Part shown: positions 32,811 through 54,733 of the stretch, piece by piece
Position numbering within the stretch: the first letter of the stretch is position 1
Layout: each line of letters starts with the position of its first letter
DNA from: Dehalococcoidia bacterium
GTDB lineage: Bacteria > Chloroflexota > Dehalococcoidia > SZUA-161 > JAUWZY01
Direction: 5' to 3'
DNA length: 64,000 bases
Assembly: GCA_034414595.1 (NCBI GenBank)
Contig: DAOULY010000004.1
Coordinates: 21,156-85,155 of the forward strand
Notes under the pieces: generated by a model
Told to the model about the DNA's origin: nothing
What the model saw: the letters and a program-made list of their open reading frames with translations, nothing else
Database searches by the model: none
Translations under genes and position numbers: made by a program

Positions 32811-33914
32811 TTGAACATGGGGCCGAGCGCTTTACGGATAGGCCAGGAGCAACTATTAGAGGCGCGGCAGGAACTCAGGTTAGCCCTGCGCTTGGAGCAG
32901 GTGAACCTGCTGGAGCTCAGCGAGGCGGAGTTCCAACGTCTCATCCGTGAGGTGGAGAGCAGTCCCCTATTTCAGAAGCTCCGCCGAGAAGAGAAGTTAG
33001 TTCACTACCAGAAATTCCCCCGGGCGGATATTTCTCCTCACTTCTACGAACTCAAAGAAGAAATCCTGGCTGATGAGGGCTCCCTGGATGTGGAGCGACT
33101 TCTGCACCATCGGGAGGAAGTGGTAGGCTTGATCAGGAGGCTGGGGTTAGAGAGATTCAAAAGCTATTTTCTCTACCCGGATGAAGAGATGACGGTGGAG
33201 GAGATCGCTCAGGATTGTGGACTCAAACCCGCTGAGGTGGAGAGAATCCACGATTTTCTGGATGACTTCTCCATCATGAGTGAGTTCTACCATCCCTCCA
33301 CCCTCAGCCCCAGCCGTGTGCACTATTCCAGGATCGCCTCCATAGAGAGGAACTCCGGAGGTTTCATTATCGGTTATTTTTGTCCCTCCAGCGCCCGCGG
33401 GAAGTATGTTATCGATCACGAAAGATTTGAGGAGCTGGAGAGCCACGGCTATTTCAACAAGAGCGAGACCAAGGAAATTAGGAGACTGCTCCAGAAACTG
33501 CAACTTATCAATATGCGCAAGGATGTCCTGCATCGAGCACTCGAGATGGTGGTGGAGCGACAGAGGCTTTACCTGGAATCGGCTGATGAGAAGTCCTTAT
33601 TGCCTTTCACGCAAAAGGAGGTGGCTGAGAGGCTGGGGGTGGCTCCCAGCACCATCACTCGGGCGATAAGGAACAAGAGCATTGATACTCCTTGGGGTGA
33701 GGAGAGGCCTCTCAAGGACTTCTTCCCCGGTCCGAAGAAGTTCAAGAAGGAGATGATCGGGCAGGTGCTTGGGGAAGGTGGTCCGCTCAGCGACCGAGAG
33801 TTAAAAGCCCGTTTGGAAGAGCGGGGGATTTCTATCTCACGGCGATCCGTAGCCCGGCTGCGGAAGGAACTGGAGATTCAGTCGATGCGTGTTGCAGTGG
33901 AAGAGAGTGGCTGA
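32811..33914 (+). CDS. rpoN: short sigma-54 (RpoN)-like factor
   Basis: 367 aa. Gln/Leu-rich region-I-like N-terminus (LRIGQEQLLEARQELRLALRLEQVNLLELS...SSPLF). C-terminal HTH TQKEVAERLGVAPSTITRAIRNKSIDTPWG..PLKDFF and an RpoN-box-like ISRRSVARLRKE. About 60-110 aa shorter than typical RpoN. Confidence 0.75.
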   Translation: MNMGPSALRIGQEQLLEARQELRLALRLEQVNLLELSEAEFQRLIREVESSPLFQKLRREEKLVHYQKFPRADISPHFYELKEEILADEGSLDVERLLHHREEVVGLIRRLGLERFKSYFLYPDEEMTVEEIAQDCGLKPAEVERIHDFLDDFSIMSEFYHPSTLSPSRVHYSRIASIERNSGGFIIGYFCPSSARGKYVIDHERFEELESHGYFNKSETKEIRRLLQKLQLINMRKDVLHRALEMVVERQRLYLESADEKSLLPFTQKEVAERLGVAPSTITRAIRNKSIDTPWGEERPLKDFFPGPKKFKKEMIGQVLGEGGPLSDRELKARLEERGISISRRSVARLRKELEIQSMRVAVEESG

Positions 33915-33916: not shown

Positions 33917-35878
33917 GTGAGCGTTATATATACGCTATCGGAGAAGTGCCGCAGGTGTTATGCCTGTGTCCGCAACTGTCCGGTAAAAGCGATCCGCATC
34001 AGGCAGGGCCAGGCCGAAGTGGTGAAGGAACGCTGCGTCAGCTGTGGGACCTGCGTACAGGTCTGCAGCCAAGGGGCCAAGCAATATGAACGGGGTACTG
34101 GAGCTGTGTGGAATATGCTGGACGGTCGCTTACCAGTGATTGCTCTTCTCGACCCCTCTTTCCCGGCAGCATTTCCTGAGGCGCAGCCTGGCCAGGTGGT
34201 CACTGCTCTTCAAAAGCTGGGCTTCAGCGAGGTGATGGAGGCCGCTTTTGGCGCTGAGCTCATCGCCATGAAATACAAACAGTTGCTGGAAAGAAAAGGT
34301 GACAAAACCCTCATAGTGTCCCAGTGTCCTGCAGTGGTAGCCTATGTGGAGAAACATCACCCTGAGTTGATTCCTAATTTGGCACCTATAGTATCCCCGA
34401 TGATCGCCATGGGGCGTTTGATCAAGCAGAAACACAATCCTGCGGCTAAAGTGGTCTTCATCGGACCCTGTATCGCCAGAAAAAATGAAGCAGCGGATGA
34501 AAAAGTGGCCGGTGCGATTGATGCTGTACTGGCCTTCGTCGAACTCCGTGAGATGCTGTCCGCCAGGGGGATCGATCCCTCTCGTGAGCCGCTCAGCGAA
34601 TTCTCCGGGCCTCAGTCACGCACTGCCCGGGCACGTCCCCTTTATGCAAGTTTCCTCAGGTTGGTACCTCACTCGGACGATTCCAGGTTGGAGAGGGTAA
34701 TTGTAGCCAGGGTGAAAGAGTATGCCATCCAGGTCTTTCGTGATCTGGCTGAGGGACATATCAGGCCCCCTATTGTGGATGCCTATTTTTGTCCTTGCAT
34801 TGATAGCCCGTTTATCGGGAATGAGCTGAGTTTCTTTCAGAGGCGGGAGCTGATCGCCAATTATGCCGGAGACCAAACAAAGCTTGAATCAGACGAGGGT
34901 GAGATTATTGAAGAGTACGCTGACATCGATCTCAGGCGCTCTTTCACCGCAGGGACACCTTCTCGGCCACATGCTACTGAGCAGGAGATCGAAGAGGTGC
35001 TGGCTCGGATCAACCGAGCAAAGCCGGAGGACAGACTTGATTGTGGGGCCTGCGGCTATAATACCTGCCGTGAGATGGCGATCGCCATTTGTCAGGGCTT
35101 GGCCGAGGACGAGATGTGCTGGCCTTACCTAATCGAGCGATCTGAGGCTACCCAGCAGGAACTTATTCAGACAGAGAAGTTGACATCACTTGGCCAGATT
35201 GCTGCCGCCATTGCCCATGAGATCAACAACCCGCTGGCAGGGGTTCTGATTTATATCAAACTACTACTGAAGAGGGTTGGCGCGAATACTCTTAAGAGTG
35301 AGGACCTCTTAAGCTATCTTCCCAAAATGGAGTCAGAGATTAGCCGCTGCTCTGGCATCATCCGCAATCTTCTGGACTTCGCCCGACAAAAGGAGCCAAT
35401 GTTCCGGGAGGTGAATATCAACCAAGTTCTGGAAAATGCATTTTCCCTGGTAGCACATCAGGCTCAGATGCAGAACATCGAGGTGAGAAAAGAACTGAGC
35501 CCGTCTCTGCCCGTTATTGTTGCTGATCCTGACCAGCTCCAGCAGGTGTGTACTAACCTCGTTCTCAACGCCATCCAGGCAATGCCTCAGAGTGGCATGC
35601 TGACTCTGCGCACTGCCACATTTGATGATCGGGTCAAGATTGACATCGGGGACACCGGCTGTGGCATCCCTAAGGAAAATCTGCCCAGACTTTTCACTCC
35701 CTTTTTTACTACCAAGGAGAGGGGAAAAGGAGTCGGACTGGGATTGGCTGTGGTTCATGGGATAATCGAGCGACACAAGGGGAAAATAGAGGTGCAGAGC
35801 GAGGTGGGGAAGGGAACCACCTTCAGCATCTATCTGGGAGTCTCCAGTGGAGAAGAAGATCAAAATCCTGGTCGTTGA
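33917..35878 (+). CDS. sensor histidine kinase with N-terminal 2x[4Fe-4S] + [FeFe]-hydrogenase large-subunit-like domain + RnfB-type Fe-S motif
   Basis: CRRCYACVRNCP/CVSCGTCVQVC. The hydrogenase-like core is LQKLGFSEVMEAAFGAELIA...VSQCPAVVAYVEKHHPELIPNLAPIVSP...FIGPCIARKNEA...FCPC. Then LDCGACGYNTCREMAIAIC. Then HisKA LGQIAAAIAHEINNPL and HATPase DTGCGI...GLGLAV. Confidence 0.85.
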   Translation: MSVIYTLSEKCRRCYACVRNCPVKAIRIRQGQAEVVKERCVSCGTCVQVCSQGAKQYERGTGAVWNMLDGRLPVIALLDPSFPAAFPEAQPGQVVTALQKLGFSEVMEAAFGAELIAMKYKQLLERKGDKTLIVSQCPAVVAYVEKHHPELIPNLAPIVSPMIAMGRLIKQKHNPAAKVVFIGPCIARKNEAADEKVAGAIDAVLAFVELREMLSARGIDPSREPLSEFSGPQSRTARARPLYASFLRLVPHSDDSRLERVIVARVKEYAIQVFRDLAEGHIRPPIVDAYFCPCIDSPFIGNELSFFQRRELIANYAGDQTKLESDEGEIIEEYADIDLRRSFTAGTPSRPHATEQEIEEVLARINRAKPEDRLDCGACGYNTCREMAIAICQGLAEDEMCWPYLIERSEATQQELIQTEKLTSLGQIAAAIAHEINNPLAGVLIYIKLLLKRVGANTLKSEDLLSYLPKMESEISRCSGIIRNLLDFARQKEPMFREVNINQVLENAFSLVAHQAQMQNIEVRKELSPSLPVIVADPDQLQQVCTNLVLNAIQAMPQSGMLTLRTATFDDRVKIDIGDTGCGIPKENLPRLFTPFFTTKERGKGVGLGLAVVHGIIERHKGKIEVQSEVGKGTTFSIYLGVSSGEEDQNPGR

Positions 35879-37208
35879 CGATGAAGCCATTGTTCGTGAA
35901 GCGCTGAGCGAGTGGCTTAGGGACGCCGGATATCAGGTGCTCACTGCCGAAAATGGCCCCAGTGCACTGGAGCTGATCGAAAGGGAGAAAGTGGAGGTCG
36001 TCCTGGCCGATCTGGTGATGCCGGGCATGGACGGCCTGGAGTTGATGAGAAAAGCCAGGGAGATCTCACCACGTATCGGAGTGGTCATTATCACTGCCTA
36101 TGGGACTATACCCACTGCTATCACGGCGATAAAGGAAGGAGCCTACGATTTCATCGAGAAGCCATTCTGTCCCGAACGAGTGGAATCGGTCATCCAGAAG
36201 CTGGCAGAGCATCACCGGCTGATAAAGGAGAACATCTCCCTCCGGCAGAGACTGGAGGATCGCTACCGCTTTGAGAACATTGTCGCCAAGAGCCACAAGA
36301 TGCAGCAGATATTCGAGGTGGTGAGGACAATAGCCCAGAGCAATACCACAGTGCTGATCACCGGCGAGAGCGGCACTGGTAAGGAACTTATCGCCCGGGC
36401 GATTCATAATTTGAGTCCACGGCGGGAACGGCCATTCGTCGCGGTTAGCTGCGCTGCTCTGCCGGAGACCCTTCTGGAGAGTGAACTATTTGGACATGAG
36501 AGGGGTGCCTTCACCGGTGCTATCGCCCAGAGGAAAGGCCGATTTGAACTGGCCCACCACGGGACTCTCTTCTTAGACGAAATCGGTGAGATAAGCGCCA
36601 ACATGCAGGTTCACTTATTGCGAGTGCTGGAAGACAAGGAATTTACTCGTGTTGGTGGTACCCAGCCGAGTAAGGTGGATGTACGCATCATCTCGGCTAC
36701 CAATAAGAATCTCGAGGAGACGGTGGCCAGGGGTGAATTTCGGGAAGACCTCTACTATCGGCTCAATGTGGTTGCCATCCGCCTGCCCCCGCTCAGAGAG
36801 AGAGCCGAGGATATCCCTCTTCTGGCCCAGCACTTCTTGGATAAGTTCGTTCAGGAGAACCAGAAAGCTGACTTGGAATTGTCTCCTGATGCTATGGATT
36901 ACATCCTGAAATACGAATGGCCCGGTAATGTCCGAGAGTTGGAGAATGCTATCGAGAGAGCGGTAGTCCTGGCTCAGGACAGCCTGATCACTGCCGCTGC
37001 GCTCTCCCCGCAGAGTCATCTCACGCCAGCCAACGCATCTCCAGGGGAAAGCCTTGAAGAACTTGAGAAGAATCACATAGTCAATGTTCTTATGGCAACT
37101 GGGGGGAACTACAGCCAGGCGGCCAGAATCTTGGGCATTACCCGAACAACACTCTATAACAAAGTGAAGAGCTATGGAGTCGATGTAAAGAAATTGGTCA
37201 GTGGTTGA
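35847..37208 (+). CDS. sigma-54-dependent NtrC-family response regulator (REC-AAA+-Fis HTH)
   Basis: KILVVDDE...LADLVMPGMDG receiver. GESGTGKE Walker A, ESELFGHERGAFTGA (GAFTGA loop), LFLDEI. C-terminal GNYSQAARILGITRTTLYNKV. GTG start overlaps the kinase stop. Confidence 0.92.
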   Translation: MEKKIKILVVDDEAIVREALSEWLRDAGYQVLTAENGPSALELIEREKVEVVLADLVMPGMDGLELMRKAREISPRIGVVIITAYGTIPTAITAIKEGAYDFIEKPFCPERVESVIQKLAEHHRLIKENISLRQRLEDRYRFENIVAKSHKMQQIFEVVRTIAQSNTTVLITGESGTGKELIARAIHNLSPRRERPFVAVSCAALPETLLESELFGHERGAFTGAIAQRKGRFELAHHGTLFLDEIGEISANMQVHLLRVLEDKEFTRVGGTQPSKVDVRIISATNKNLEETVARGEFREDLYYRLNVVAIRLPPLRERAEDIPLLAQHFLDKFVQENQKADLELSPDAMDYILKYEWPGNVRELENAIERAVVLAQDSLITAAALSPQSHLTPANASPGESLEELEKNHIVNVLMATGGNYSQAARILGITRTTLYNKVKSYGVDVKKLVSG

Positions 37209-37323: not shown

Positions 37324-37417
37324 GTAAAAAGGGTGGAGAGGATAGAAAGGAAGGTGAGCGGAGATGAGAGACGCAGGAATTCAAAGGGAAATCGAATTGG
37401 GAAAGGAGGTAGAAGAG

Positions 37418-38458
37418 ATGAAAGGCAGACAAGGCATATTGGTAGTAGAGGACGAGACCATCATGAGGGAGTCGCTGAAGGACTGGCTGCAGGAAGGCGG
37501 CTATCAGGTGGCCACGGCTGAGGATGGGGAGCAGGCGCTACAGATGGCCCAGGAGCAGGAGTTCGGGGTTGCTGTTCTGGACCTGAGATTGCCAGGTAAG
37601 GATGGAATCGAGGTGCTGAGGGAGGTCAAGGAACGCCAGCCTCAGCTCAAAGGGATCATCATCACCGCCTACCCTTCGGTGGAAACAGCGGTGGAGGCGA
37701 TCAAGGTTGGTGCGGTGGACTATCTGACCAAGCCCTTTGCTCCGGACGAGCTGGAGAAGCTGATCGAGCAAGTGCTGGGGCCGGTGCAGCTGGAGATAAG
37801 ACCAGAAGCACACGTAGAGATCGTAGAAGAGGCTGTCGAGGAGGCCGAGGTCGAGGAGATCATAGCCATAACTGAGGAGGAGTTCCCAGTCCATCTCCAG
37901 CTGGGTAAGGAGCACTTTGCAGCCGGTCAGTTGCAAGAGGCACTGAAAGAATTTCAGGCTGTGCTCAAGGTCGCTCCAGGCAACATCGAGACCCGAGTCT
38001 GGATTGGGAAAACGACCAAGGCCATAGCCGAGCAAGGGACCGAGGCGGGAGCTGGAGGAGAGGCTATAGCTGCCGAGGCAAAACCCAACTACTGCGTATG
38101 GATGGCGATGGGTATGGTCTCCTATCGCGTCTGCACCAACAGCTACAACTGTGTCACCTGCGAATTTGACCAGACGATGCAGGAGAAATTGGCCAGCGGT
38201 GGGGGTACAGAGCTTGACGAGGTGCTGGAGAGATTCAAGAGACTACCCGGCTATCAAAGGCTCTGCCGCTATGCTCTGAAGGGTGACGTTACCCACAGGC
38301 TTTGCACTCGCCTTTTCCAGTGCGCCACCTGTGAGTTTGGTCAGATGATGGATGACGCCCTTCAGCTACAGCTTGCGCAAAGGCAGGCTGAGATAGCCGC
38401 CCGGCAGGAGGCTATAGGCAAGAAGGGGCAGAGTTGGTGGTGGCGCTATTGGGGCTGA
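37418..38458 (+). CDS. receiver domain protein with TPR-like linker and duplicated C-x12-C-x5-C-x2-CEF[DG]Q motif
   Basis: Start at the ATG after aaggagg. REC: ILVVEDE...[11 protein letters not shown]...IIITAY...KPF. Acidic linker, then HLQLGKEHFAAGQLQEALKEFQAVLKVAPGN (TPR-like). Then CVWMAMGMVSYRVCTNSYNCVTCEFDQ and CRYALKGDVTHRLCTRLFQCATCEFGQ. Confidence 0.85.
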   Translation: MKGRQGILVVEDETIMRESLKDWLQEGGYQVATAEDGEQALQMAQEQEFGVAVLDLRLPGKDGIEVLREVKERQPQLKGIIITAYPSVETAVEAIKVGAVDYLTKPFAPDELEKLIEQVLGPVQLEIRPEAHVEIVEEAVEEAEVEEIIAITEEEFPVHLQLGKEHFAAGQLQEALKEFQAVLKVAPGNIETRVWIGKTTKAIAEQGTEAGAGGEAIAAEAKPNYCVWMAMGMVSYRVCTNSYNCVTCEFDQTMQEKLASGGGTELDEVLERFKRLPGYQRLCRYALKGDVTHRLCTRLFQCATCEFGQMMDDALQLQLAQRQAEIAARQEAIGKKGQSWWWRYWG

Positions 38459-42122: not shown

Positions 42123-42128
42123 AGAGCG

Positions 42129-43309: not shown

Positions 43310-44184
43310 GATATTACGCCTACTTTCCCGGTTGTTCGCTTGAAGGTACGGCAATACCCTACAAGCTGTCCATTCAGGCGGTGAGCAAAGCTTTGGGGGT
43401 CGAGCTGGTTGAACTCGAGGACTGGAATTGCTGCGGAGCTTCGGCCTATAGCTCGGTGGACGAACTGGTATCCACATGCGTCTCAGCCCGCAACTTGGCC
43501 CTGGCGGAGAAAACCGGGCTTGATCTGGTAACTGCCTGCAGTGCTTGCTATACCACCTTGAATAAGGTGAATTCTGCGCTGAAGCAATACCCACAGCTAA
43601 AGGCCAGCGTGGGTGAGGTGCTATCCGCAGTTGGTCTAGAGTACAGAGGGACTGCCAGAATAAGGCATCTGGCCCGGGTTCTGCTGGAGGATATCGGTTG
43701 CGAGGCTATTGCCAGTGAGGTACGGCAGCCACTTGAGGGGCTAAGGGTAGCGCCTTACTACGGGTGCCAGCTCGTCCGGCCCCACCCTAGTCTAGACAGC
43801 GCTGAATTTCCTGACTCCTTGGATCGCCTTATGGAGTCTCTCGGTGCTGAGGTGACTGTTTTCCCGCTCAGGGCTCGCTGCTGCGGCGCATCCCTGATTA
43901 TCTCCCAGCCGGAAGTGGCTCTGGGCCTGATCCGTAAACTCCTTGATAACGCTGTGGAGAATGACGCTCAGTGCTTGGTGACCGTTTGTCCGCTGTGCCA
44001 GACGAACTTAGATGTATACCAGGGCAAGGTTGCCTCCAAATTCCAGGTAAAATATGACATTCCCGTATTCTTCTTTACGCAACTGGTGGGGCTGGCTCTG
44101 GGGCTGGGCTTCAAAGAGCTTGGCATAGATAAGCTGGTCGTGCCAGCTGAGAAGTTGCTGACTCAGCATAAGGTTAGAGTTTAG
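43306..44184 (+). CDS. hdrB: heterodisulfide reductase subunit B
   Basis: Two CCG domains: YFPGCSLEG...NCCGAS and YYGCQLVRP...RCCGASL. Confidence 0.92.
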   Translation: MRYYAYFPGCSLEGTAIPYKLSIQAVSKALGVELVELEDWNCCGASAYSSVDELVSTCVSARNLALAEKTGLDLVTACSACYTTLNKVNSALKQYPQLKASVGEVLSAVGLEYRGTARIRHLARVLLEDIGCEAIASEVRQPLEGLRVAPYYGCQLVRPHPSLDSAEFPDSLDRLMESLGAEVTVFPLRARCCGASLIISQPEVALGLIRKLLDNAVENDAQCLVTVCPLCQTNLDVYQGKVASKFQVKYDIPVFFFTQLVGLALGLGFKELGIDKLVVPAEKLLTQHKVRV

Positions 44185-44192
44185 GAGGCCAG

Positions 44193-47100
44193 ATGGAGAC
44201 GAACGGACGGAGAATAGGCGTCTATGTTTGCTACTGCGGGTCGAACATTGCGGGCATGGTTGATGTGGAAGAAGTGGCCGAATTTGCTCAAGATATCCCT
44301 GGGGTGGTGGTATCCCGAGCGTACAAATACATGTGTTCCGAACCGGGTCAGGAACTCATCAAGAAGGACATCCGAGAACTCGGAGTCGACCGGGTAGTAG
44401 AGGCCTCCTGTTCACCCCGGATGCATGAGCCCACCTTTCGGCGTGCCCTACAGGACGCGGGACTGAATCCCTATCTGCTGGAGATGGTCAATCTTCGGGA
44501 GCACTGTAGCTGGGTTCATGAGGATAGGCTGGCAGCTACGGAGAAGGCCAAAGCACTGGTCAACGCAGCGGTGAGGAGGGTCTACTACCATGAGCCCCTG
44601 GAAACTAAGGAGGCACCGGTTAATCCCAACACCTTGGTGGTGGGGGGAGGGATTGCGGGGATTCAGGCGGCTCTGGAGATCGCCAACGGGGGTTACAAGG
44701 TCTACCTGGTGGAGCGTGAGCCCTCCATCGGTGGTTACATGATCAAGCTCGATAAAACTTTCCCCACGCTCGACTGTTCGGCCTGTATCCTCACTCCCAA
44801 GATGACCGATGTGGGCCAGCACCCGAACGTGGAGCTCATGAGCTACAGCGAAGTGGCAGATGTTTCGGGCTATGTGGGGAATTTCAAGGTCAAGATAAGG
44901 AAGAAAGCAAGGTATGTAGATGAGACCAAGTGTACTGGTTGTGCTGAGTGTTCCAAGGTCTGTCCTGTTGAGGTGAAGAGCGAATTTGAAGAGGGCCTCG
45001 CCAATCGCAAGGCGATCTATATCCCCTTCCCCCAGGCCGTGCCCAATAAAGCGGTCGTAGACAAGCATGGTTACCCACCCTGCCGGGCGGCCTGTCCCGC
45101 CGGCGTCAATGCTCAGGGTTATATCGCCCTTATCTCACAGGGCAAGTTCAGAGAAGCTGTTGATGTGGTGAGGCGGACCATGCCTTTTCCTGGGATATGC
45201 GGGCGGGTTTGCACCCACCCCTGCGAAATCGATTGTGAACGGGGGAAGATCGATGAGCCTGTTTCGATCAGGAGCTTAAAGCGCTTTATAGCTGATTATG
45301 AGCTGAAGGTGGGTAGGGAGAAGGCCACTCCGGTCAAGCTGAGTAAAGAGGAAAAAGTGGCTGTCATTGGCTCTGGGCCGGCGGGCTTGGCTTGCGCTTA
45401 TGATCTGGTCGGGATGGGCTATCCGGTGACCGTGTTTGAGGCCATGCCCGAGCCTGGAGGCCTGTTGCGTTATGGAATTCCGGAATATCGTCTACCTAAG
45501 AAGGTGCTGAATAATGAGATAGACTACATCAGAGAATTGGGTGTGGAGATCAAGACCATGACCCCGGTGAGGGATTTGTCTCAGCTCTTTAAGCAGGGCT
45601 ACAAGGCCGTTTTCTTGGGAACCGGGGCAAGTGTGAGCCGGAAGATGGGCATTCCAGGCGAGGAGGTTGCGGGGGTGCTCCATGCCCTGTCGTTCCTGAA
45701 GCAATCCCACTCCGGGGCCAGGGTAGGCTTGGGGCGGCGGGTGGCAGTGGTCGGTGGTGGCAACGCCGCCGTTGATGCCGCCAGGGTGGCGTTGCGCTTG
45801 GGTGCTGAAGATGTCACCATTGTCTATCGCCGTTCTCGGGCAGAGATGCCTGCTGTTCCCAGCGAGGTCGAGCAGGCCGAACGTGAGGGAGTGAAGATTC
45901 AGTTCCTCACCGTTCCGGTTCAAATTCGGTCCAAGGATGGCATGTTGGTGGGCATGGAATGCATCCGGATGGAGCTTGGCGAGCCCGATGCCAGCGGGCG
46001 CCGCCGGCCGGTTCCGATCAAGGGCTCAGAGTTCACCATCTGGGTGGACAACGTGATCATTGCCACCGGCCAGGCTGTGGATAAAGCTCAGCTCCCATCC
46101 GAGTTGGTGTTCACCGACTGGGGCACGATCTCCGTTGACCCGGTCACGCTGGAGACGAACATCAGCGGGGTGTTTGCTGGTGGGGATGTGGTAGCTGGGC
46201 CGGCGGATGTTATTGCAGCTATTGCCGCAGGGAAGGAAGCCGCTATATCCGTTGATCGTTATCTTAGCGGAGTTGACATGAGCGAAGGGAGACCCAGGGC
46301 TATTAGCAGGGTTGCTGAAGTGGCTAAGGAAGGTGTGGAGGCAAGACCCCGGGCGACTATGCCATTGCTGGAGAGCAAAGGACGGCTTGACTCTTTTGCC
46401 GAGGTTGAACTCGGCTTTGATGAAAAGAGGGCTATCGAGGAGGCCAAGCGCTGTTTGAACTGTGGCGTCTGTTGTGAGTGTCTAGAATGTGTCAAGGCCT
46501 GTGAGGCCCAGGCTATCAATCATGAGATGAAAGGCGATATCATAGAAGTAGAAGTGGGCAACATCATCCTTGCCACCGGGTATCAGCAGTTCGATCCCTC
46601 GGTCATCCCGCAGTACGGATATGGGAGGTATGATAATGTTGTCACTGGCCTTGAATTAGAGCGGATGATCAATGCCTCTGGCCCTACTTCTGGTCAGGTC
46701 TTGCTTAAAAATGGCCGGGAACCTGAGAGCGTCGCCATAATACACTGCGTGGGCAGCCGCGATGAGAACTATCATGAATATTGCTCCAGGGTCTGCTGCA
46801 TGTACGCTCTGAAGTTCTCCCATTTGCTCAAGGAACACATCCATGGTGTCCAAGTATACCAGTTCTACATTGACATGCGTTGCTTTGGCAAGGGTTATGA
46901 GGAATTCTACAACCGCCTTCTGGCGGAAGGGGTGAATTTCGTTCGCGGCAAACCCGGCGAGATCACTGATGTGGCCGAGACGCCAGAGGAGCGAGGCAAA
47001 CTCGTCATACAGGTTGAGGATACCCTCGCCGGACAACAGCGCCGCATACCGGTTGACATGGTTGTCCTCTGCAGTGCTCTGGAGCCACGAAGTGACTCCG

Positions 47101-47546
47101 ATGAAGTCGCTCGGCTCTTCCGCATCAGCAAGACCGCTGATGGCTTCTTCCTGGAGAGGCATCCCAAGCTCGATCCAGTGGCTACCCCCAGCGACGGAAT
47201 CTATGTGGTTGGCTGTTGCCAGGGGCCCAAGGACATCCCTGACACGGTGGCCCAAGCTTCAGCGGCGGCCGCTCGAGCCCTGGCTTTGATCAGCAAGGGG
47301 ACAGTGGAAATAGAGGCGGGCATTGCGGCAGTCGATGAGCAGCTATGCTCCGGCTGTAAGACCTGCATCATGCTCTGCCCTTATAGTGCTATCTCCTTCG
47401 ATGAGGAGAAAGAGGTCTCCGTTGTCAATGAAGCAGTGTGCAAGGGATGTGGCACCTGTGCCGCGGCATGCCCTGCCGGCGCTATCACTGCTCGGCAATT
47501 CACCACTGAGGAAATAATGGCTCAGATCGAGGGGGTGCTGGTGTAA
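44193..47546 (+). CDS. hdrA: heterodisulfide reductase subunit A with inserted GltD/NfnB-like NAD(P)H oxidoreductase module (HdrL-like)
   Basis: 1117 aa. RIGVYVCYCGSNIAG, GGGIAGIQAA, KCTGCAECSKVCP. The insertion is PPCRAACPAGV...CGRVCTHPCEIDCERGK, GSGPAGLACA, GGGNAAVD. It then resumes AKRCLNCGVCCECLEC...IHCVGSRD...CSRVCC. C-terminal CSGCKTCIMLCP/CKGCGTCAAACP. Confidence 0.92.
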   Translation: METNGRRIGVYVCYCGSNIAGMVDVEEVAEFAQDIPGVVVSRAYKYMCSEPGQELIKKDIRELGVDRVVEASCSPRMHEPTFRRALQDAGLNPYLLEMVNLREHCSWVHEDRLAATEKAKALVNAAVRRVYYHEPLETKEAPVNPNTLVVGGGIAGIQAALEIANGGYKVYLVEREPSIGGYMIKLDKTFPTLDCSACILTPKMTDVGQHPNVELMSYSEVADVSGYVGNFKVKIRKKARYVDETKCTGCAECSKVCPVEVKSEFEEGLANRKAIYIPFPQAVPNKAVVDKHGYPPCRAACPAGVNAQGYIALISQGKFREAVDVVRRTMPFPGICGRVCTHPCEIDCERGKIDEPVSIRSLKRFIADYELKVGREKATPVKLSKEEKVAVIGSGPAGLACAYDLVGMGYPVTVFEAMPEPGGLLRYGIPEYRLPKKVLNNEIDYIRELGVEIKTMTPVRDLSQLFKQGYKAVFLGTGASVSRKMGIPGEEVAGVLHALSFLKQSHSGARVGLGRRVAVVGGGNAAVDAARVALRLGAEDVTIVYRRSRAEMPAVPSEVEQAEREGVKIQFLTVPVQIRSKDGMLVGMECIRMELGEPDASGRRRPVPIKGSEFTIWVDNVIIATGQAVDKAQLPSELVFTDWGTISVDPVTLETNISGVFAGGDVVAGPADVIAAIAAGKEAAISVDRYLSGVDMSEGRPRAISRVAEVAKEGVEARPRATMPLLESKGRLDSFAEVELGFDEKRAIEEAKRCLNCGVCCECLECVKACEAQAINHEMKGDIIEVEVGNIILATGYQQFDPSVIPQYGYGRYDNVVTGLELERMINASGPTSGQVLLKNGREPESVAIIHCVGSRDENYHEYCSRVCCMYALKFSHLLKEHIHGVQVYQFYIDMRCFGKGYEEFYNRLLAEGVNFVRGKPGEITDVAETPEERGKLVIQVEDTLAGQQRRIPVDMVVLCSALEPRSDSDEVARLFRISKTADGFFLERHPKLDPVATPSDGIYVVGCCQGPKDIPDTVAQASAAAARALALISKGTVEIEAGIAAVDEQLCSGCKTCIMLCPYSAISFDEEKEVSVVNEAVCKGCGTCAAACPAGAITARQFTTEEIMAQIEGVLV

Positions 47547-47592
47547 AACAATCTGCCGACCTAGACAGAGTTTTGCCTAAGGAAATAAAAAG

Positions 47593-49842
47593 ATGAAACC
47601 AATATTGGTAGTAGATGACGAATCTATTATGAGGGAGTCTCTCCGAGATTGGTTAACCACCGGTGGTTATGAGGTAGAGACCGCTAAGGAGGGAGAGGAA
47701 GCATTAAGAACTATTGCCAAGCAGGACTTTGAACTTGTTATCCTCGACCTGAGGTTGCCAGGAAAGGATGGGATTGAAGTACTAAAGGAGGCCAGGATAC
47801 AAAGACCGCAGATTAAGGGGATTATCATTACCGCTTATCCCTCAGTGCAGACAGCGGTAGATGCGATGAAGGAAGGTGCTGTCGATTATTTACCCAAACC
47901 CTTTGAACTCGATGACCTTGAGAAAATAATTCGGGAGACTCTTGGACCAGTTCAGATAGAGATAGTGCCAAAGGCTGCCACTGGGACAGCTATAGCCGAA
48001 TTACCTCCTATAGTAGTAGAGGAAGTAAAGGCGAAAGAAGAGCCGGCACAGGTTGAGGAAGTGATTGATGAGGAGACGGGGAAAATATACCTGCCTCCTT
48101 GTCAGATAGCTTGCCCTATTGGAGAGGACATTCAACGAACTAATGCAATGATTGCCCTTCTTCCTCTGGATCCTGAGGAGGCTTCCAGCCAGGTAATAAA
48201 AATAGGTGATGTGATTTACGAGAAGAATCCTCTATTCCCAGTATGCAGCTATATTTGTGGGCTTTGTGAGAGGGAGTGCAATTGCAAAGACCAGACCGGA
48301 GCAATAAGAAGAAAGTTGCTCAAACGGTTTCTAACTGATTATTACCTTCCATACTTGGAAACCAAGCCACCAATTCCCTACCCTACTAAGGAAAAGGTTG
48401 CTGTGATTGGGGGAGGACCCGGGGGATTGATGTGTGCTTACATGCTTAGTAAAAAGGGATATCAGGTGACTATTCTGGAAATGAGTTCCCAGTTAGGGGG
48501 TGCTCTAAGATACATCCCTCGATATCGTCTGCCAACAAATATTATAGATACTACTTTAAATAATCTGGCAAGGATCGCCCATATTGATGTTAAATTCGGA
48601 GTAAAGTTGGGCAAGGATGGGAAAACGCTGGATGACCTTCAAAATGCAGGTTACCAGGCCATATTCATTGCTACCGGCACCCATTCTCCTAGACCCCTTA
48701 CTATTGAGGGACAACTAGTAACAGGAGCAAATCTAGATGGCGTCGAGTTCGGGTTGCATCTTCTCTCCGATGTGAACCAAGGAAAGGTCTCTACTCGGTT
48801 CCTTCGCCGGCTCTTTTCGGGTAGGAGGGTGATAGTAGTGGGCGGTGGCAATGTGGCATTTGATGTAGCAAGGTCTGTCCGGCGGCTCGACGGAGATGTT
48901 TCTATTGTCTGTCTCGAGTGTGAGGATAAATCTTCTAAGGATGGGGTTCCGGCCGATGTAGAAGAGATAGAAGGCGCTGAAGAAGAAGGCATAGAAATAC
49001 ATTATTGCCGGGGAATAGAAGAGATAATCGGAGAGGATGGAAAATTCAGAAAAATAAAATGCCCCCGTTGTATATCAGTCTTTGATGAACGCGGATTCAA
49101 TCCTAAATTTGACCGGAGTGATGCGATATATCTTGAGGGTGATGTGTTGCTGATTACCATAGGGCAAGGTTCAGAGCGGGCATTTTTCCAGCAGGAAGGC
49201 TTGTTTAATGATAAAGGCAGGCTTGATATCGACCAGTTTACTCTCATGAGCAATCGCAAAGAAGGAGTTTTCATTGGAGGCGATGTAAGGCGGGCAGGTT
49301 TTGCTGCGGAAGCAATGAGAGATGGGGTAATGGCAGCGGAGTCTATAGATCGCTACCTGAGGGGTGAGAACCTGAAGGCAGGCAGGGAAAAGGAATATGA
49401 AAATGCTGCTATCCCCCAGCTTATGGATTACAAGCCTCAACCTCAATTGGAATGGGCACCGGTGGAAGAGAGGCTAAACTTTGAATTGTTTGAAAAAGGG
49501 TTCACCCTGGAAGAAGCAGTGAAAGAGGCCAGAAGGTGCCTGTGCTGTGGCCCATGTAAAAGTTGTAAAGCGTGTGTGGCACTGGCACTTCAGCCTCAGA
49601 TACCACAAATTGAAATCGACCAAGATGTATGTAGCGGGTGTGGAATTTGTGTTGCCGTATGCAGCTACAATGCAGCCAAAATAGTGAAATCTGATAACGG
49701 GAGCGGGCTAGTATCAATTATAGATGACCTTAGGTGCAAGCGATGTGGTGTATGTATTGCTGCCTGTCCTGCTGAAGCCATTAACACTAACCAATTTACT
49801 ACTGAGCGCATTATGACTGAGATTGAGGAGGTGCTGGTATGA
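47593..49842 (+). CDS. receiver (CheY-like) domain fused to GltD-like flavoprotein and HdrA-type C-terminal ferredoxin domain
   Basis: 749 aa. REC: ILVVDDE...[11 protein letters not shown]...IIITAY...PKPF. Then [11 protein letters not shown]...[71 protein letters not shown]. The tail [16 protein letters not shown] mirrors the HdrA tail QFTTEEIMAQIEGVLV. The stop overlaps the mvhD ATG (ATGA). Confidence 0.88.
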
Positions 49843-50291
49843 GCTTCGAACCAAAGATCGTTGGCTTCCTGTGCAACTGGTGCTCTTATGCCGGAGCCGA
49901 TCTGGCAGGTACATCGAGGATCAAGTACCCTCCCAATGTGCGGGTAGTAAGGGTGATGTGTAGTGGGCGAGTGGAACCCGCTTTTGTGCTCAAGGCCTTC
50001 GCCTGTGGAGCAGATGGTGTGCTCATCTGCGGCTGCCATCCCGGAGACTGCCACTACATGGAAGGGAACTATAAAGCGGCCCGACGCATCCCTTTGCTCA
50101 AGGAAATGCTAAAGCAGTTTGGGATCGAGGAAGAGAGGGTTCGTCTTGAGTGGGTCTCTGCTTCTGAGGGCGATCGCTTCGCCGCCATCGTCAAGGACAT
50201 GACAGCTAAGATAAGAGAATTAGGACCTCTCGACTGGAACGAAAGGAGGCGAGGTGCAGAAGCTGAAACTGGCACTATACTGGTCGGCTAG
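49839..50291 (+). CDS. mvhD: MvhD-like hydrogenase iron-sulfur subunit D
   Basis: [21 protein letters not shown]...MCSGR...[10 protein letters not shown]. Confidence 0.9.
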
Positions 50292-51219
50292 CTGTGGTGG
50301 CTGCGATGTCGCTGTCCTCGATACAAATGAAAAGATCCTCGACATAGCTGAGATAGCCGACATCGTCTTCTGGCCCATAGCTCTGGATTTCAAGTATGAC
50401 GACGTCAGGGCCATGGATGACGGGAGCATCGATGTCTGTCTTTTCAACGGTGCGGTGAGGAACTCGGAGCAGGAGGAGATCGCCCGGCTGCTTCGAGCCA
50501 AGTCAAAAGTGATGGTGGCCTTTGGTGCCTGTGCCTGCTTCGGCGGCATCCCAGCCTTGGCCAACCTCACCAACAAGGAGGGGATATTCGAGCGGGCTTA
50601 TGTAGAGGCTCCTTCAAACGATAACCACACAGTGGCCTACCCCCAGCTCAAAACGAGTGTCCCCGAGGGAGAGCTCGAAATACCTGAGTTCTATGATACT
50701 GTCCTGGCACTGCATCAGCTGGTAGATGTGGAATACTTCGTGCCTGGCTGTCCACCTCCGGTGGACCTGATCTTGGAGTTTGTGAATATGCTGAAATCGG
50801 GCCAGCTTCCCCCGCCGGTGGCTGTGCTGGCCAAGGAGAAGTCGCTCTGTGATGAGTGTCCCAGGAAGAAAGAGGAGAAGAAAATTACTCGGATTTATCG
50901 ACCCCACCAGCTCATTCCTGAACCCGAGCGCTGTCTCTTGGAGCAAGGGCTAATCTGCCTCGGCCCGGCGACCAGGGGGGGCTGTGGCGCCCGATGCATC
51001 CTGGCCAACATGCCCTGCCGGGGCTGTTTTGGGCCTACGCCAGAGGTCACAGACCAGGGGGCCAATATACTCAGTGCAGTGGCCTCGATCTATGAGGTCA
51101 GGGATGAGGAGGAGATTACAAGGATGACAGATGAGGTGGTAGACCCAGCAGGCACATTCTACCGCTTCGGCATGTCAACCTCGCTGCTTCAAAGCAGGAG
51201 GGAGAAGGAGGCCAAATGA
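50254..51219 (+). CDS. mvhG: [NiFe]-hydrogenase small subunit, Mvh/group-3 type
   Basis: [18 protein letters not shown] (proximal cluster CxxC), [26 protein letters not shown] start after aggagg. Confidence 0.88.
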
Positions 51220-52721
51220 AGTTGGTAACCATTAACCCCATCACCAGGCTGGAAGGGCATGGAAAGATAGACATTTTCCTTGATGACGAGGGAAATGTGG
51301 CCAATGCCTACCTCGAGATTCCTGAGCTCCGCGGGTTCGAGAAATTCTGTGAGGGAAGGCCGGTGGAGGAAATGCCGCGGATAACCCCCAGGATTTGCGG
51401 CGTCTGCCCCGGAGCGCACCATATGGCCTCGACCAAGGCCACTGATGCTGTCTTTCATATTGAGCCACCGCTGGCGGCGAAGAAACTGCGGGAGCTTTTT
51501 TACTGTGCCCATATGATCCACTCCCATATCGCTCACTTCTACGCTCTGGCTGCTCCTGACTTTATCCCCGGCCCTATGGCTGACCCTAAGGAGAGGAACA
51601 TCCTGGGACTGATAGCCAAGGTCGGGCTCGAGGTCGGCAGTGAGGTGATCAAACACCGTGCCTATGCCCAGGATATACAAGCAGTTATTGGGGGCAAGGC
51701 AACTCATCCCGTCTGCGGCTTGCCGGGGGGGATGAGTAAAGCTATTACCGAGGAGGAACGGCGCGACTTTGAGGAAAAGGCCAGGAGCTTGGTCGAGTTT
51801 GGCAAGTTCTCACTAAAGCTGTTCGACGACTTGGTCCTGGCTAACAAAGAGTACCTGGATTTGATCTTAGGCGACATCTACACTATGAAGAGCTACTACA
51901 TGGGCCTGGTGGATGTCAATAACAGGGTGAACTTCTACGAAGGCGATATTCGGGTTGTTGATCCCGAGGGGAACGAATTCCACAGGTTCAAGCCTGCTGA
52001 GTACTTGGATTACGTAGCGGAGCATACGGAGCCCTGGTCCTATTTGAAGTTTCCCTTCTTGAAAAAGGTTGGCTGGAAAGGGCTGGTGGATGGGAGTGAA
52101 AGCGGGGTCTATCGGGTGAATTCCTTAGCTCGACTCAACGTGGCCGACGGTATGGCAACTCCGTTGGCTCAGGAAGAATATGAGCGGATGTTCCAGACTC
52201 TTGGCGGCAAGCCGGTTCACGCCACGCTGGCCTTCCACTGGGCGAGGTTGGTAGAGCTACTATATGCTGCCGAGCGACTGCTTGAGCTCTGCCAGGACGG
52301 GGAGATCACCGATCCCAATGTCCGGATCATCCCCACAGCTACCCCGGATGAGGGGGTCGGTGTGGTGGAGGCCCCGCGGGGCACACTGTTCCATCGCTAT
52401 CAGACCGATGATAAGGGCATTATCCAGAAAGTGAACTTGATCGTGGCTACAGTGCAAAATAATCCGGCCATGAACATGTCCGTCAGGAGAGCAGCTCAGG
52501 GTTTGATTCACAAGGGTAAGGTGGTGACCGAAGGACTGTTGAATATGGTCGAGATGGCATTTCGCGCCTATGACCCGTGCATGGCCTGTGCTACCCATAC
52601 CTTGCCCGGGCAGATGCCACTCGAGGTGGTTATCTACGATAGCAAGGGGCAGGTGGTTGAGAAGTTGAGTCAGCACTTGCATTCAGAGTCGACTGGCATA
52701 AGAGTGCAGGTAGTGACATAG
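51216..52721 (+). CDS. mvhA: [NiFe]-hydrogenase large subunit, Mvh/group-3 type
   Basis: ITRLEGHGKI, RICGVCPGAHH (N-terminal Ni-Fe ligands), C-terminal DPCMACATH followed by about 40 aa of cleavable extension. Confidence 0.92.
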   Translation: MKLVTINPITRLEGHGKIDIFLDDEGNVANAYLEIPELRGFEKFCEGRPVEEMPRITPRICGVCPGAHHMASTKATDAVFHIEPPLAAKKLRELFYCAHMIHSHIAHFYALAAPDFIPGPMADPKERNILGLIAKVGLEVGSEVIKHRAYAQDIQAVIGGKATHPVCGLPGGMSKAITEEERRDFEEKARSLVEFGKFSLKLFDDLVLANKEYLDLILGDIYTMKSYYMGLVDVNNRVNFYEGDIRVVDPEGNEFHRFKPAEYLDYVAEHTEPWSYLKFPFLKKVGWKGLVDGSESGVYRVNSLARLNVADGMATPLAQEEYERMFQTLGGKPVHATLAFHWARLVELLYAAERLLELCQDGEITDPNVRIIPTATPDEGVGVVEAPRGTLFHRYQTDDKGIIQKVNLIVATVQNNPAMNMSVRRAAQGLIHKGKVVTEGLLNMVEMAFRAYDPCMACATHTLPGQMPLEVVIYDSKGQVVEKLSQHLHSESTGIRVQVVT

Positions 52722-52733
52722 AAAGACGAGGGA

Positions 52734-53258
52734 ATGAAGACACTGATCTTGGGGCTGGGCAACCCGATTCTCAGCGATGATGGGGTAGGGCTTCACGTTG
52801 CTGCGGAACTCAAAGACAGGATTGACCAGCGAGAGGTAACCGTCATGGAGACCAGCATGGCTGGCCTGAACCTGCTGGACCTGCTGGTTGGCTATGATAG
52901 GGCTATCATCATCGATGCTATTCAGACTGTAGAAGGGGGGGCGGGGCAGATTTACCAGCTTGAGACGGGGGCGTTCGATACCAGCCGGCACTCTGCCTCG
53001 CCCCACGATGTTAACTTCGCCACTGCTCTTGAGCTTGGCAACAGGCTGGGTCTGGCTTTACCTCAACAAATTGACATCTTCGCCATCGAGGCGGCGGATG
53101 TGAGCACCTTCAGCGAGGAATGCACTCCTGAAGTGAGACAGGCGATCCCTGTTTGTGTTGAAGTGATCATCGAGGAGCTAAAAGGAGGCTCGAATGCACA
53201 GCTTGGCGATGGCCCAAAGCATTATGCAGGCGGCGCTCAGCGAAGCCGAGAAGCATGA
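52734..53258 (+). CDS. hydrogenase maturation endopeptidase (HyaD/HycI family)
   Basis: MKTLILGLGNPILSDDGVGLHVA...AIIIDAI...SPHD motifs. The 3' end overlaps the hypA-like start, so the functional end may be earlier. Confidence 0.85.
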   Translation: MKTLILGLGNPILSDDGVGLHVAAELKDRIDQREVTVMETSMAGLNLLDLLVGYDRAIIIDAIQTVEGGAGQIYQLETGAFDTSRHSASPHDVNFATALELGNRLGLALPQQIDIFAIEAADVSTFSEECTPEVRQAIPVCVEVIIEELKGGSNAQLGDGPKHYAGGAQRSREA

Positions 53259-53475
53259 GGGAAAGTGCATCAAAGAGCTCAGTGTTAAAGTGGGAGAACA
53301 CACTTTCCTGGAATCTGATTCGCTGCAGTTTTGCTTGGAGGCTTTGTCGAAGGGAACCATTGCCGAGGGGGCACAGATAGGGATTGAGCTTGTAGGCGAA
53401 ACCGATTGTGGCGATGGAAACCATGAGCTACATACTGATGAGGAGCTTGTGTCAATCACGCTAAAGCTGGAGTGA
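53194..53475 (+). CDS. hypA: HypA-like protein lacking the zinc-ribbon (possibly degenerate)
   Basis: MHSLAMAQSIMQAAL...SLQFCLEALSKGTIAEGAQIGIE matches the HypA Ni-binding N-terminus (MHE/MHS). The CxxC...CxxC zinc module is absent (93 aa). Confidence 0.6.
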   Translation: MHSLAMAQSIMQAALSEAEKHEGKCIKELSVKVGEHTFLESDSLQFCLEALSKGTIAEGAQIGIELVGETDCGDGNHELHTDEELVSITLKLE

Positions 53476-53484
53476 AGGGCCAGA

Positions 53485-54724: not shown

Positions 54725-54733
54725 TGAACCTCT

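Follow-up and report, generated by a model that had tools for sequence, protein, structure and literature searches.

The redox balance of strict anaerobes hinges on flavoprotein complexes that are linked to hydrogenases or bifurcate electrons; to our knowledge, what is understood of their regulation is mainly transcriptional. Enzymatic outputs are well described for response regulators, among them the CheB methylesterase, the diguanylate cyclases PleD and WspR, RpfG and the RssB-type adaptors; in such regulators the receiver domain (REC) is tethered flexibly to an effector that does not bind DNA, and phosphorylation lifts or imposes an inhibition or drives dimerisation. We analysed a stretch of 64,000 nucleotides from a Dehalococcoidia bacterium (GCA_034414595.1, contig DAOULY010000004.1, positions 21,156 to 85,155; hereafter the window), in which a gene at 47593..49842 (+ strand) joins a receiver to a GltD/NfnB-like flavoprotein with a C-terminal ferredoxin domain (REC-GltD-Fd). 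Unlike regulators of the CheB, PleD or WspR type, this protein has as its predicted output an Fe-S flavoprotein that belongs to an electron-transfer complex linked to a hydrogenase, and we are aware of no redox enzyme of this kind that has been characterised as REC-controlled. The enzymatic-output response regulators and all of the redox modules are known already; what is new is their combination, its recurrence and its wiring. We consider it fairly likely that REC-GltD-Fd is the flavoprotein partner of an Mvh-type (group 3c-like) [NiFe] hydrogenase and that it has acquired a functional two-component receiver.

The likeness to NfnB of the NfnSL complexes (4YLF from T. maritima, 5JCA from P. 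furiosus) and to the GltD-like part of NfnA/StnA (9N5U, 9BOV, 8OH5) lies in the fold and the cofactor motifs. As in NfnB, a two-[4Fe-4S] N-terminal domain is followed by an FAD GxGxxG motif and a second dinucleotide site, GGGNxAxD; unlike NfnB, the protein has CLE and a 5-residue insertion in place of YRR, an HdrA-type C-terminal ferredoxin domain and an added N-terminal receiver. Moreover, it has no NfnA/NfnS (FNR-like [2Fe-2S]) partner gene, its genetic partner being Mvh. Named HdrA-NfnB fusions include HdrL1-3 of Desulfobacterium autotrophicum (PMC2702500) and HdrA9-11 of ANME-1 (PMC9012536). The core of REC-GltD-Fd is homologous to the NfnB-like insert of the HdrL-type HdrA encoded just before it in the window and its C-terminus to the HdrA ferredoxin domain, and both proteins are followed by mvhD, whereas REC-GltD-Fd is a free-standing 'insert plus C-terminal domain' with a receiver and without the bifurcating FAD domain. 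With the methanogen MvhAGD-HdrABC complex (M. wolfeii structure) the locus shares hdrCBA and mvhDGA homologs and a conserved MvhD client domain, but here the host is bacterial (Dehalococcoidia), there is an extra REC-bearing flavoprotein client, and most relatives of REC-GltD-Fd occur with Mvh and without Hdr. Finally, GltD-Fd-MvhD fusions (P0244, P0254, P0258 and others) have the same core at 36-42% identity over ~570 residues, C-terminal ferredoxin domain included; unlike them, the window keeps MvhD as a separate, coupled gene and adds REC.

The open reading frame (ORF) runs from an ATG at 47593 to a TGA ending at 49842 and encodes 749 amino acids (aa) without internal stops. All motifs quoted in an earlier note, made from the sequence by a model, were found in this translation: VVDDE (D8, D9), IIITAY (T80) and PKPF (K102, P103), with D52 as the acceptor, GGGPGG (residues 273-278) and the GGGNVA site, which is part of GGGNVAFD (417-424); VCLE follows at 439-442. 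The Pfam scan proposed there recovered PF00072, Pyr_redox_2 and Fer4, with Fer4_20 just sub-threshold. The receiver (residues 4-113, 47602..47931; D8/D9, D52, T80, Y99, K102-P103) matches Response_reg (PF00072) with 101.6 bits (E 3.5e-29; cut-off 30.2). Next comes an acidic, Pro-rich, flexible linker (residues 119-160, 47947..48072), delimited by predicted local distance difference test (pLDDT), conservation and the ratio of non-synonymous to synonymous substitution rates (dN/dS), and then the N-terminal Fe-S domain of the GltD/NfnB module (residues 166-252, 48088..48348), recognised from Fer4_20 and Cys conservation. The FAD- and dinucleotide-binding module (residues 266-592, 48388..49368) is matched by Pyr_redox_2 (residues 268-578, 106.6 bits) and by PDB structures. 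A cluster of invariant Cys (residues 649-661, 49537..49575) is a possible extra Fe-S site, and the protein ends in a 2x[4Fe-4S] ferredoxin domain with its tail (residues 673-749, 49609..49839), identified by Fer4/Fer4_7 at residues 673-729 and homology to HdrA. An AlphaFold2 (AF2) model with 109 homologs (pLDDT 74, predicted template modelling score 0.66) has an NfnB-like core and a (beta-alpha)5 receiver, with five strand-helix units in residues 4-117 (pLDDT ~80); linker residues 119-153 have pLDDT <50 and are modelled as disordered. Linker conservation (0.72 in the 109-sequence alignment) is below that of the flanking domains.

The receiver appears competent. Its best PDB match is NtrC1 (1zy2, E 5e-22), and the CheY residues D12/D13, D57, T87, Y106 and K109 have their equivalents in D8/D9, D52, T80, Y99 and K102. 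Counted in the 109-sequence alignment, D9 is kept in 104/106 homologs, D52 in 105/105, and T80, Y99 and K102 in 105/107 each, while the mean column conservation of REC equals that of the FAD/NAD module (0.84 for both). Pairwise dN/dS (NG86, eight informative pairs) ranges over 0.05-0.16 in REC, 0.11-0.21 in the core and 0.18-0.57 in the linker. Purifying selection acts on REC no less strongly than on the catalytic core. Residue conservation together with low dN/dS means that REC is neither an artefact nor a decaying pseudo-receiver, and the pseudo-receiver reading was rejected on these grounds. The complete receiver described earlier is thus borne out, with the acceptor Asp (D52) and the Lys (K102) both in place. 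We also regard it as very improbable that REC is a non-phosphorylated structural or dimerisation domain that aids complex assembly only. Dimerisation through the alpha4-beta5-alpha5 face is possible, Mvh-Hdr complexes are obligate dimers according to PMC9012536, and a group of hydrogenase loci described below (type A) has no nearby kinase; however, conservation of D8/D9, D52, T80, Y99 and K102 in at least 98% of homologs is untypical of pseudo-receivers, and REC has been kept homogenised with a bona fide two-component partner.

The fusion itself is widespread. A search of 5.8 billion proteins gave 2292 matches at E<=1e-10, including >100 full-length homolog clusters from JGI, ENA, NCBI and Logan assemblies. 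PF00072 is present in each of the listed clusters with a query coverage of 96% or more (64-84% identity, 717-766 aa), and those full-length clusters that are named come from Dehalococcoidales or Chloroflexota metagenome-assembled genomes (MAGs). Among GTDB genomes, nearly all full-length orthologs (68-79% identity) are in MAGs labelled Dehalococcoidales/Dehalococcoidia, and two (L006, L008) are in MAGs labelled Deltaproteobacteria. The junction between REC and oxidoreductase reads through in 12 further translated loci, and this recurrence rules out the assembly error that the earlier note had named as a danger. That note had also allowed for an already characterised family. No curated NCBIfam family covers REC-GltD-Fd: the best model is PRK12771 'NAD(P)-binding protein', at 336 bits against a cut-off of 516, and automated names merely string COGs together. 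A full-text search of the literature brought up work on HdrL and HdrA-NfnB fusions, on HydS-type sensors and on Mvh-Hdr structures, and no paper describing a receiver fused to GltD, NfnB or HdrA. Automated names from JGI, for instance 'glutamate synthase beta subunit-like oxidoreductase/CheY-like chemotaxis protein', indicate that pipelines have met the architecture. It is hardly credible, however, that an error of sequencing or assembly created the fusion or that it belongs to a characterised, common family: the same frame is kept in >100 clusters of independent assemblies, no NCBIfam model reaches its cut-off and the literature search was negative.

The core resembles solved flavoproteins. 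Its PDB matches are 9n5u_A (1.6e-57), 4ylf_B (3e-43) and 5jca_L (2.6e-42), that is, the GltD-like part of NfnA/StnA (NfnABC/StnABC) is closest, followed by NfnB; with Foldseek, the core has a TM score of ~0.68 to NfnB (5jca_L, 4ylf_B). The N-terminal Fe-S region aligns to the two-cluster domain of the NfnA/NfnB/StnA structures, and its C170, C174, C218, C222, C225 and C229 are invariant in homologs, the window protein having C231 as well. C649, C652, C655, C658 and C661 are likewise invariant across homologs, and this cluster aligns with the RCLNCG stretch of HdrA and with NfnA/StnA. GGGNVAFD is also invariant among homologs, and beta-2 of the dinucleotide site ends in an invariant VCLE (E442) with a 5-residue insertion, at the position where NfnB, GltD and the HdrA insert have VYRR (NADPH-type). 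Under the acidic-residue rule for Rossmann folds, such a Glu after beta-2 speaks for NADH rather than NADPH, so that the site is unlikely to be of the NADPH type and may take NADH. The GltD/NfnB-like module of the earlier note therefore stands as to fold, Fe-S motif and the GGGPGG/GGGNVA sites, with the amendment that VCLE replaces VYRR, so that the module is not of the standard NADPH type.

The C-terminal 75 residues are 47% identical to residues 1047-1117 of the window HdrA, and 12/16 of the last residues agree (hand count on the alignment), as expected from the earlier remark that this end mirrors the HdrA C-terminus. Residues 672-747 match residues 576-649 of the solved HdrA 9sfi_A (E 4.8e-15), and the core shares 34% identity with the NfnB-like insert of the window HdrA over 528 aa. 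In the Mvh-Hdr structure, as outlined by Chadwick et al. (PMC9012536), MvhD delivers electrons to HdrA via the C-terminal ferredoxin domain, and HdrA's inserted ferredoxin domain is the exit to ferredoxin.

Membership in the known complexes was considered and rejected in each case. For NfnAB/NfnSL, the operon and the related loci hold no gene for an FNR-like [2Fe-2S] NfnA/NfnS; the neighbours of REC-GltD-Fd across loci are hdr, mvh, hyp and two-component genes. For GltBD, the scores of TIGR01316, TIGR01317 and TIGR01318 are far under their cut-offs and gltB is not nearby. For HdrA, the protein lacks both the thioredoxin-reductase-like FAD domain and the N-terminal cluster domain.

In the window, REC-GltD-Fd lies in a series of genes on the + strand. 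Upstream are hdrC (42530-43309) and hdrB (43306-44184), which overlap by 4 nt and were recognised by their Fer4_8 and CCG domains, and hdrA (44193-47546; Pfam, NCBIfam); downstream are mvhD (49839-50291; FlpD), mvhG (50254-51219; Oxidored_q6), mvhA (51216-52721; NiFeSe_Hases) and a gene for a hycI-type maturation protease (52734-53258; HycI). The best NCBIfam matches of the mvh genes are VhuA/VhuG. The gap from hdrA to REC-GltD-Fd is 46 nt, and the stop of REC-GltD-Fd overlaps the mvhD start in an ATGA at 49839-49842, with a GAGGAGG ribosome-binding site upstream of the overlap. Both the coupling to mvhD and the placement between hdrA, ending at 47546, and mvhDGA, starting at 49839, are as the earlier note had described them. 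Judging from gene spacing and overlaps, which indicate a single transcription unit, hdrCBA-REC-GltD-Fd-mvhDGA-hycI would be transcribed together. A scan of 41500-54000 for consensus sigma-70 promoters and terminators gave no signal above chance. The window HdrA owes its length of 1117 aa to an inserted NfnB-like module at ~residues 286-790: its NCBIfam HdrA2/HdrA matches are split around a PRK12771 insert at 286-790. It is of the HdrL (HdrA-NfnB) type, which PMC2702500 and PMC9012536 describe for D. autotrophicum and ANME-1, respectively. The HdrA insert carries an NADPH-type VYRR site.

Synteny, read by tblastn and from called genes, revealed which of these neighbours is conserved. In type A (L003, L005, L006, L008, L012, L081, L082, L085, L086) the order is mvhG, mvhA, REC-GltD-Fd, nifU-like, hycI, mvhD, in some cases genes for an Fd-MvhD-Fd and a MetV-like protein, and hypFCDEAB, without hdr; the hyp genes were read out only in L081, L082, L085 and L086. 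Type B (window, L083, L084) has hdrCBA, REC-GltD-Fd, mvhDGA and hycI, with L004 showing hdrCBA only, and in type C (L001, L002) the gene stands among signalling genes only. REC-GltD-Fd comes after mvhA or before mvhD in the window, L003, L005, L006, L008, L012 and L081-L087, whereas hdr is absent within 10 kb in 9 of ~15 full-length loci. The conserved partner of REC-GltD-Fd is Mvh, not Hdr; of the Hdr/Mvh association proposed earlier, the Mvh half is conserved and the Hdr half is not.

The position of the gene and of its relatives argues for a structural subunit, as the earlier note had supposed, rather than a regulator. In L009, L010, L011 and L013, the place after mvhA is taken by orthologs without REC (66-75% identity). 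The nearest outgroups checked (36-42% identity), drawn from an exhaustive search of a 50%-identity representative library, are GltD-Fd proteins with a C-terminal MvhD (FlpD) fusion in 12/12 cases (P0244, P0254, P0258, P0264, P0281, P0284, P0290, P0291, P0294, P0298, P0303, P0329); as the family is present in that library mostly as fragments, it gives no count of family breadth. Given the C-terminal domain homologous to that of HdrA, the translational coupling to mvhD and these Rosetta-stone fusions, REC-GltD-Fd is most likely a flavoprotein that docks MvhD, and as such it would connect the [NiFe] hydrogenase with a pyridine nucleotide, ferredoxin or both.

The single-chain fusions of a GltD/NfnB-like module, ferredoxin and MvhD are themselves a large uncharacterised family (~656-729 aa), each listed protein being a separate 50%-identity cluster. 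In the type-A loci L081, L082, L085 and L086, a small NifU-like protein (~72 aa) is encoded just downstream of REC-GltD-Fd, and some type-A loci also have a Zn-ribbon protein, a 389-aa Fd-MvhD-Fd protein and a MetV-like (PF12225) protein. These companions of the type-A mvh/hyp clusters may be extra subunits or assembly factors.

Receivers have been grafted onto Mvh/Hdr-linked flavoproteins several times, as attested by N-terminal REC, C-terminal REC, REC inside HdrA and P0296, in which three RECs accompany an HdrA-like part. In P0241, which came up in the search of the 50%-identity representative library, a core 58% identical to that of REC-GltD-Fd is followed by a complete C-terminal REC (Pfam 609-719) and then by mvhD-mvhG. 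In L022, from a Desulfobacteraceae MAG, an HdrA-like protein (~1-1604, - strand) has a complete REC inserted between residues aligned to window HdrA 304 and 777, which is the site of the NfnB-like insert. Such REC-in-HdrA proteins are common in Desulfobacterota: PF00072 is present in most of the best 120 clusters (P0121-P0240), which include one from Desulfosarcina cetonica and several from Syntrophobacteraceae, and no paper describing this family was found in the literature. In a crude neighbour-joining tree of the core, the REC-less Dehalococcoidia forms fall inside the clade with N-terminal REC, and P0241 is sister to that clade. A single gain of REC was rejected on this tree, since nested REC-less forms imply secondary loss or repeated gain; the tree is too crude to choose between these, and the history of REC involved gain and probably loss.

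P0241 (L087 601-2775) is a low-GC relative with the mirror architecture GltD-Fd-REC. The REC of the REC-in-HdrA proteins lies in the inserted-ferredoxin domain, and these proteins are annotated just as 'response regulator' or 'heterodisulfide reductase subunit A'. In L022, the REC-HdrA gene adjoins genes for HdrL (1141 aa), MvhD and a kinase-like protein with a REC-like stretch.

The window offers a candidate kinase for the receiver. Within 12 kb upstream of REC-GltD-Fd, on the same strand, lies a regulatory cluster for a short sigma-54-like protein (32811..33914; 367 aa, Sigma54_DBD only in Pfam, partial match to NCBIfam rpoN), a candidate kinase (33917..35878) with 2x[4Fe-4S], Fe-hydrogenase-like, 4-Cys FeS, HisKA and HATPase_c domains in Pfam, an NtrC-type sigma-54-dependent response regulator (35847..37208; REC, Sigma54_activat, HTH_8) and a REC-TPR protein with a duplicated Cys motif (37364..38458; Pfam). 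The sigma-54-like protein heads the kinase/NtrC cluster also in L001, L002, L015, L020, L083 and L084. The kinase has an H-box HEINNP at 434 and intact N and G boxes; Fe_hyd_lg_C scores 161.6 bits and the 4-Cys FeS motif is PF04060. In joining 2x[4Fe-4S], Fe_hyd_lg_C and PF04060 to a signalling output it resembles the putative sensory (group C) [FeFe]-hydrogenases (HydS; the HydDB histidine-kinase-linked class, PMC5037454).

The receivers tie the two sets of genes together. In the window, the closest paralog of the REC of REC-GltD-Fd is that of the REC-TPR protein (83/125 identical, 66%, by BLASTP with ORF 37364-38458), close to the 81/121 counted by hand in the earlier note. Within a genome, the two RECs are 65% identical in the window, 88% in L001 and 99% in L002, while orthologous RECs are 75-82% identical between genomes and the REC of the NtrC-type regulator is 44-48% identical to that of REC-GltD-Fd (47% in the window). 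In L002, 10001-10420 and 12393-12812, which lie 2.4 kb apart and cover REC and the linker start, agree at 417/420 nt, a sign of very recent gene conversion or domain duplication, an assembly effect being less likely. The RECs of REC-GltD-Fd and REC-TPR form one intermingled clade, which points to repeated domain copying or gene conversion; at 99% identity, the two receivers of L002 would look identical to a kinase. Moreover, in L083 and L084 the regulatory cluster directly follows hycI in the same orientation, and in L001 and L002 REC-GltD-Fd lies inside or adjoining it. By NCBIfam class, the transmitter is nearest AtoS/ZraS and the REC nearest AtoC/NtrC/ZraR, and the two other window kinases are of the HisKA_3 type, each adjoining a LuxR-type regulator. 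Contiguity, REC exchange, the class match and the exclusion of the HisKA_3 kinases make the Fe-hydrogenase-like kinase the best candidate, and a plausible one, for the REC of REC-GltD-Fd.

In the sigma-54-like protein (32811-33914), the N-terminal activator-interacting and core-binding regions are not recognisable, and it may be a dedicated sigma-54 variant. The REC-TPR protein has C-x13-C-x5-C-x2-C-E-F twice at residues ~243-325, without a Pfam match there; this motif could be a metal- or Fe-S-binding output domain.

Synteny, fusions, selection and a conserved architecture are what the analysis shows; the cofactors, the contact with MvhD, which kinase acts and what phosphorylation does are deduced from them. 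On this footing we propose the following course of events. The core (~160-749) would hold two N-terminal [4Fe-4S] clusters, FAD, a dinucleotide site and a C-terminal 2x[4Fe-4S]. Electrons from H2 would pass through MvhA, MvhG and the [2Fe-2S] of MvhD to the C-terminal ferredoxin domain and on to FAD, although flow could run either way, and beyond FAD they might reach pyridine nucleotide and/or, through the N-terminal clusters, ferredoxin. The MvhD of the window could serve the adjacent HdrA(NfnB-insert)BC as well. A redox or H2 signal would cause autophosphorylation of the kinase at 33917-35878 and transfer to three receivers. D52 of REC-GltD-Fd would be phosphorylated by this Fe-hydrogenase-like HisKA kinase; the NtrC-type activator would act on transcription, possibly with the dedicated sigma-54-like factor; and REC-TPR would be another receiver of the same kinase. 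One signal might thus act on transcription and on the enzyme directly. Phosphorylation could work by docking or undocking of REC on the core, or by REC-REC dimerisation that alters assembly or the choice of MvhD partner; with a flexible, disordered linker of ~45 residues, docking or dimerisation is most likely and rigid allostery unlikely. Of the phosphorylation-dependent gating of a bifurcating Hdr/Mvh complex that the earlier note had suggested, the link to Mvh is upheld, Hdr is not the conserved partner, and gating is a step that we infer.

Since two MvhD clients, HdrA and REC-GltD-Fd, are encoded side by side, partner switching is an attractive form of such control. Phosphorylation would then be a post-translational electron-routing switch, the state of REC picking HdrA(NfnB-insert)BC or REC-GltD-Fd as the client of MvhD, a solution that would have evolved repeatedly. 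We offer this extension tentatively and hold it to be doubtful. If true, H2 electrons could be diverted within seconds between a heterodisulfide/ferredoxin branch and a pyridine-nucleotide/ferredoxin branch, and a general, unrecognised layer of control would lie over flavin-based electron-bifurcating complexes.

Several observations weigh against the explanation of REC-GltD-Fd as a receiver-controlled partner of Mvh. At residues 168-251, Fer4_20 scores 25.6 bits, 0.2 below its cut-off of 25.8. The AF2 output is uninformative on REC docking, the linker being disordered, and the assignment to NADH is based solely on the acidic-residue rule. The REC-less orthologs imply that the core works without REC. 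A canonical sigma-54 promoter was not found upstream of hdrC: a scan for TGGCAC-N5-TTGCW gave 45 matches against 36.6 expected, none convincing, and no 9-mer was common to three of the four hdrC upstream regions (window, L083, L004, L021). Compared with the canonical H-cluster motifs (L1 TSCCP, L2 MPCxxK, L3 ExMxCxxGCxxG), those of the kinase are non-canonical, with SQCP at L1, GPCIARK at L2 and FCPC at the L3 position (291-294). Unlike the group C [FeFe]-hydrogenases, it has thereby lost the proton-relay Cys of L1 and had L3 replaced. Because L1 and L3 are not canonical, H2 sensing and H-cluster binding are uncertain, and the kinase may sense redox via its Fe-S clusters rather than H2 via an H-cluster. 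The shared kinase that the earlier note had placed at 33917 is accordingly plausible from adjacency, class match and REC similarity, but its sensor departs from the hydrogenase-like pattern.

A further point of this kind is that nine type-A loci have no kinase within 10 kb, which would fit phosphorylation by another kinase elsewhere in the genome or by acetyl phosphate or similar small donors; co-regulation alone would then account for the synteny with the regulatory cluster. A second, shorter kinase beside the Fe-hydrogenase-like one in L001, L002 and L015 favours the same idea. We nevertheless regard it as quite unlikely, given that the genes are contiguous in L083, L084, L001 and L002, that an AtoS/ZraS transmitter matches an AtoC/NtrC/ZraR REC, and that the remaining window kinases are HisKA_3 enzymes paired with LuxR regulators.

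The last such point comes from L001 and L002, where no mvh occurs within 10 kb of REC-GltD-Fd, only signalling genes, and where a signalling role fits equally well. The flavoprotein might then be a sensor, its flavin/Fe-S redox state tuning the uptake or loss of phosphate by REC, so that it would act as a redox-dependent phosphate sink or connector. Its inputs would be the NAD(H)/ferredoxin pool or electrons via MvhD, and its competitors for the kinase NtrC and REC-TPR. In these two loci the gene lies within the sigma-54-like/kinase/NtrC/REC-TPR cluster and has neither mvh nor hdr within 10 kb; its REC is nearly interchangeable with that of REC-TPR, which means that the two must compete for the same kinase; and the flexible linker argues against rigid allosteric control of catalysis. 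However, most loci put the gene inside hydrogenase structural or maturation operons, the REC-less orthologs and MvhD-fused outgroups mark the core as an Mvh-linked redox protein in its own right, and the catalytic motifs are invariant, so that we judge a sensor role to be unlikely and retain the receiver-bearing partner of Mvh as the preferred explanation.

On this preferred explanation, the locus suggests that an electron-transfer enzyme may be under the direct command of a sensor kinase, and not only controlled by way of transcription. A built-in receiver would give direct, fast and signal-dependent control of electron flow, and three independent architectures point in this direction. Moreover, a 'sensory hydrogenase-like' kinase would gain a concrete set of outputs here, namely an activator, REC-TPR and an enzyme subunit. 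Dehalococcoidia of this kind are uncultured; even so, the hypothesis is testable, as the parts are all soluble and heterologously expressible.

The flanks of the operon showed further features. A tandem 19-bp direct repeat, GAGAAAGYTGGCGCCRGC, with the palindrome TGGCGCCA, lies at 42403-42440 (+), 90-125 bp upstream of hdrC, and is a candidate for the binding of a regulator; L083, L004 and L021 do not conserve it. Just 5' of hdrC, a small ORF (42130-42366, +) encodes one transmembrane helix and a basic tail. Its counterparts in L083 (~4918-5082) and L021 (~18962-19140) are alike in position and topology and poorly conserved in sequence. Divergent from hdrC, 38550-41574 (-) encodes NuoE-like, NuoF-like and 209-aa 2Fe-2S/4Fe-4S proteins (HydC/HydB/truncated-HydA-like). 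In L010 (3124-6142), a NuoE/NuoF-like set is co-directional with and directly upstream of mvhDGA-GltD-Fd, which hints that a Bfu-type (HydABC-like) module may also work with the [NiFe] hydrogenase. After the operon, behind a bidirectional hairpin (53758-53776), come a tyrosine integrase gene (53780-54724, -) and, 1.3 kb beyond it, a tRNA-Met (56006-56079, -); the region 53758-56079 may be the edge of an integrated element.

Elsewhere in the window, a second Hdr-type cluster (15021-23075, -) comprises an HdrC-HdrB fusion (15021-16505), MetF (16453-17376), MetV (17410-18102; PF12225) and a 1476-aa giant (18645-23075) with HdrA-like and NfnB-like FAD modules. It looks like a Moorella-type MetFV-Hdr methylene-THF (tetrahydrofolate) reductase with an extra NfnB-like module, and suggests a Wood-Ljungdahl lifestyle. 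In a 1027-aa protein (10133-13216, +), a calcineurin-like phosphoesterase is joined to a novel STAND NTPase domain (nSTAND4), which gives it a defence-like architecture. Finally, genes for a LarC-like nickel-insertion protein (PF01969) and a LarB-like, AIR-carboxylase-like protein (58124-60533, -) suggest synthesis of the nickel-pincer nucleotide cofactor.

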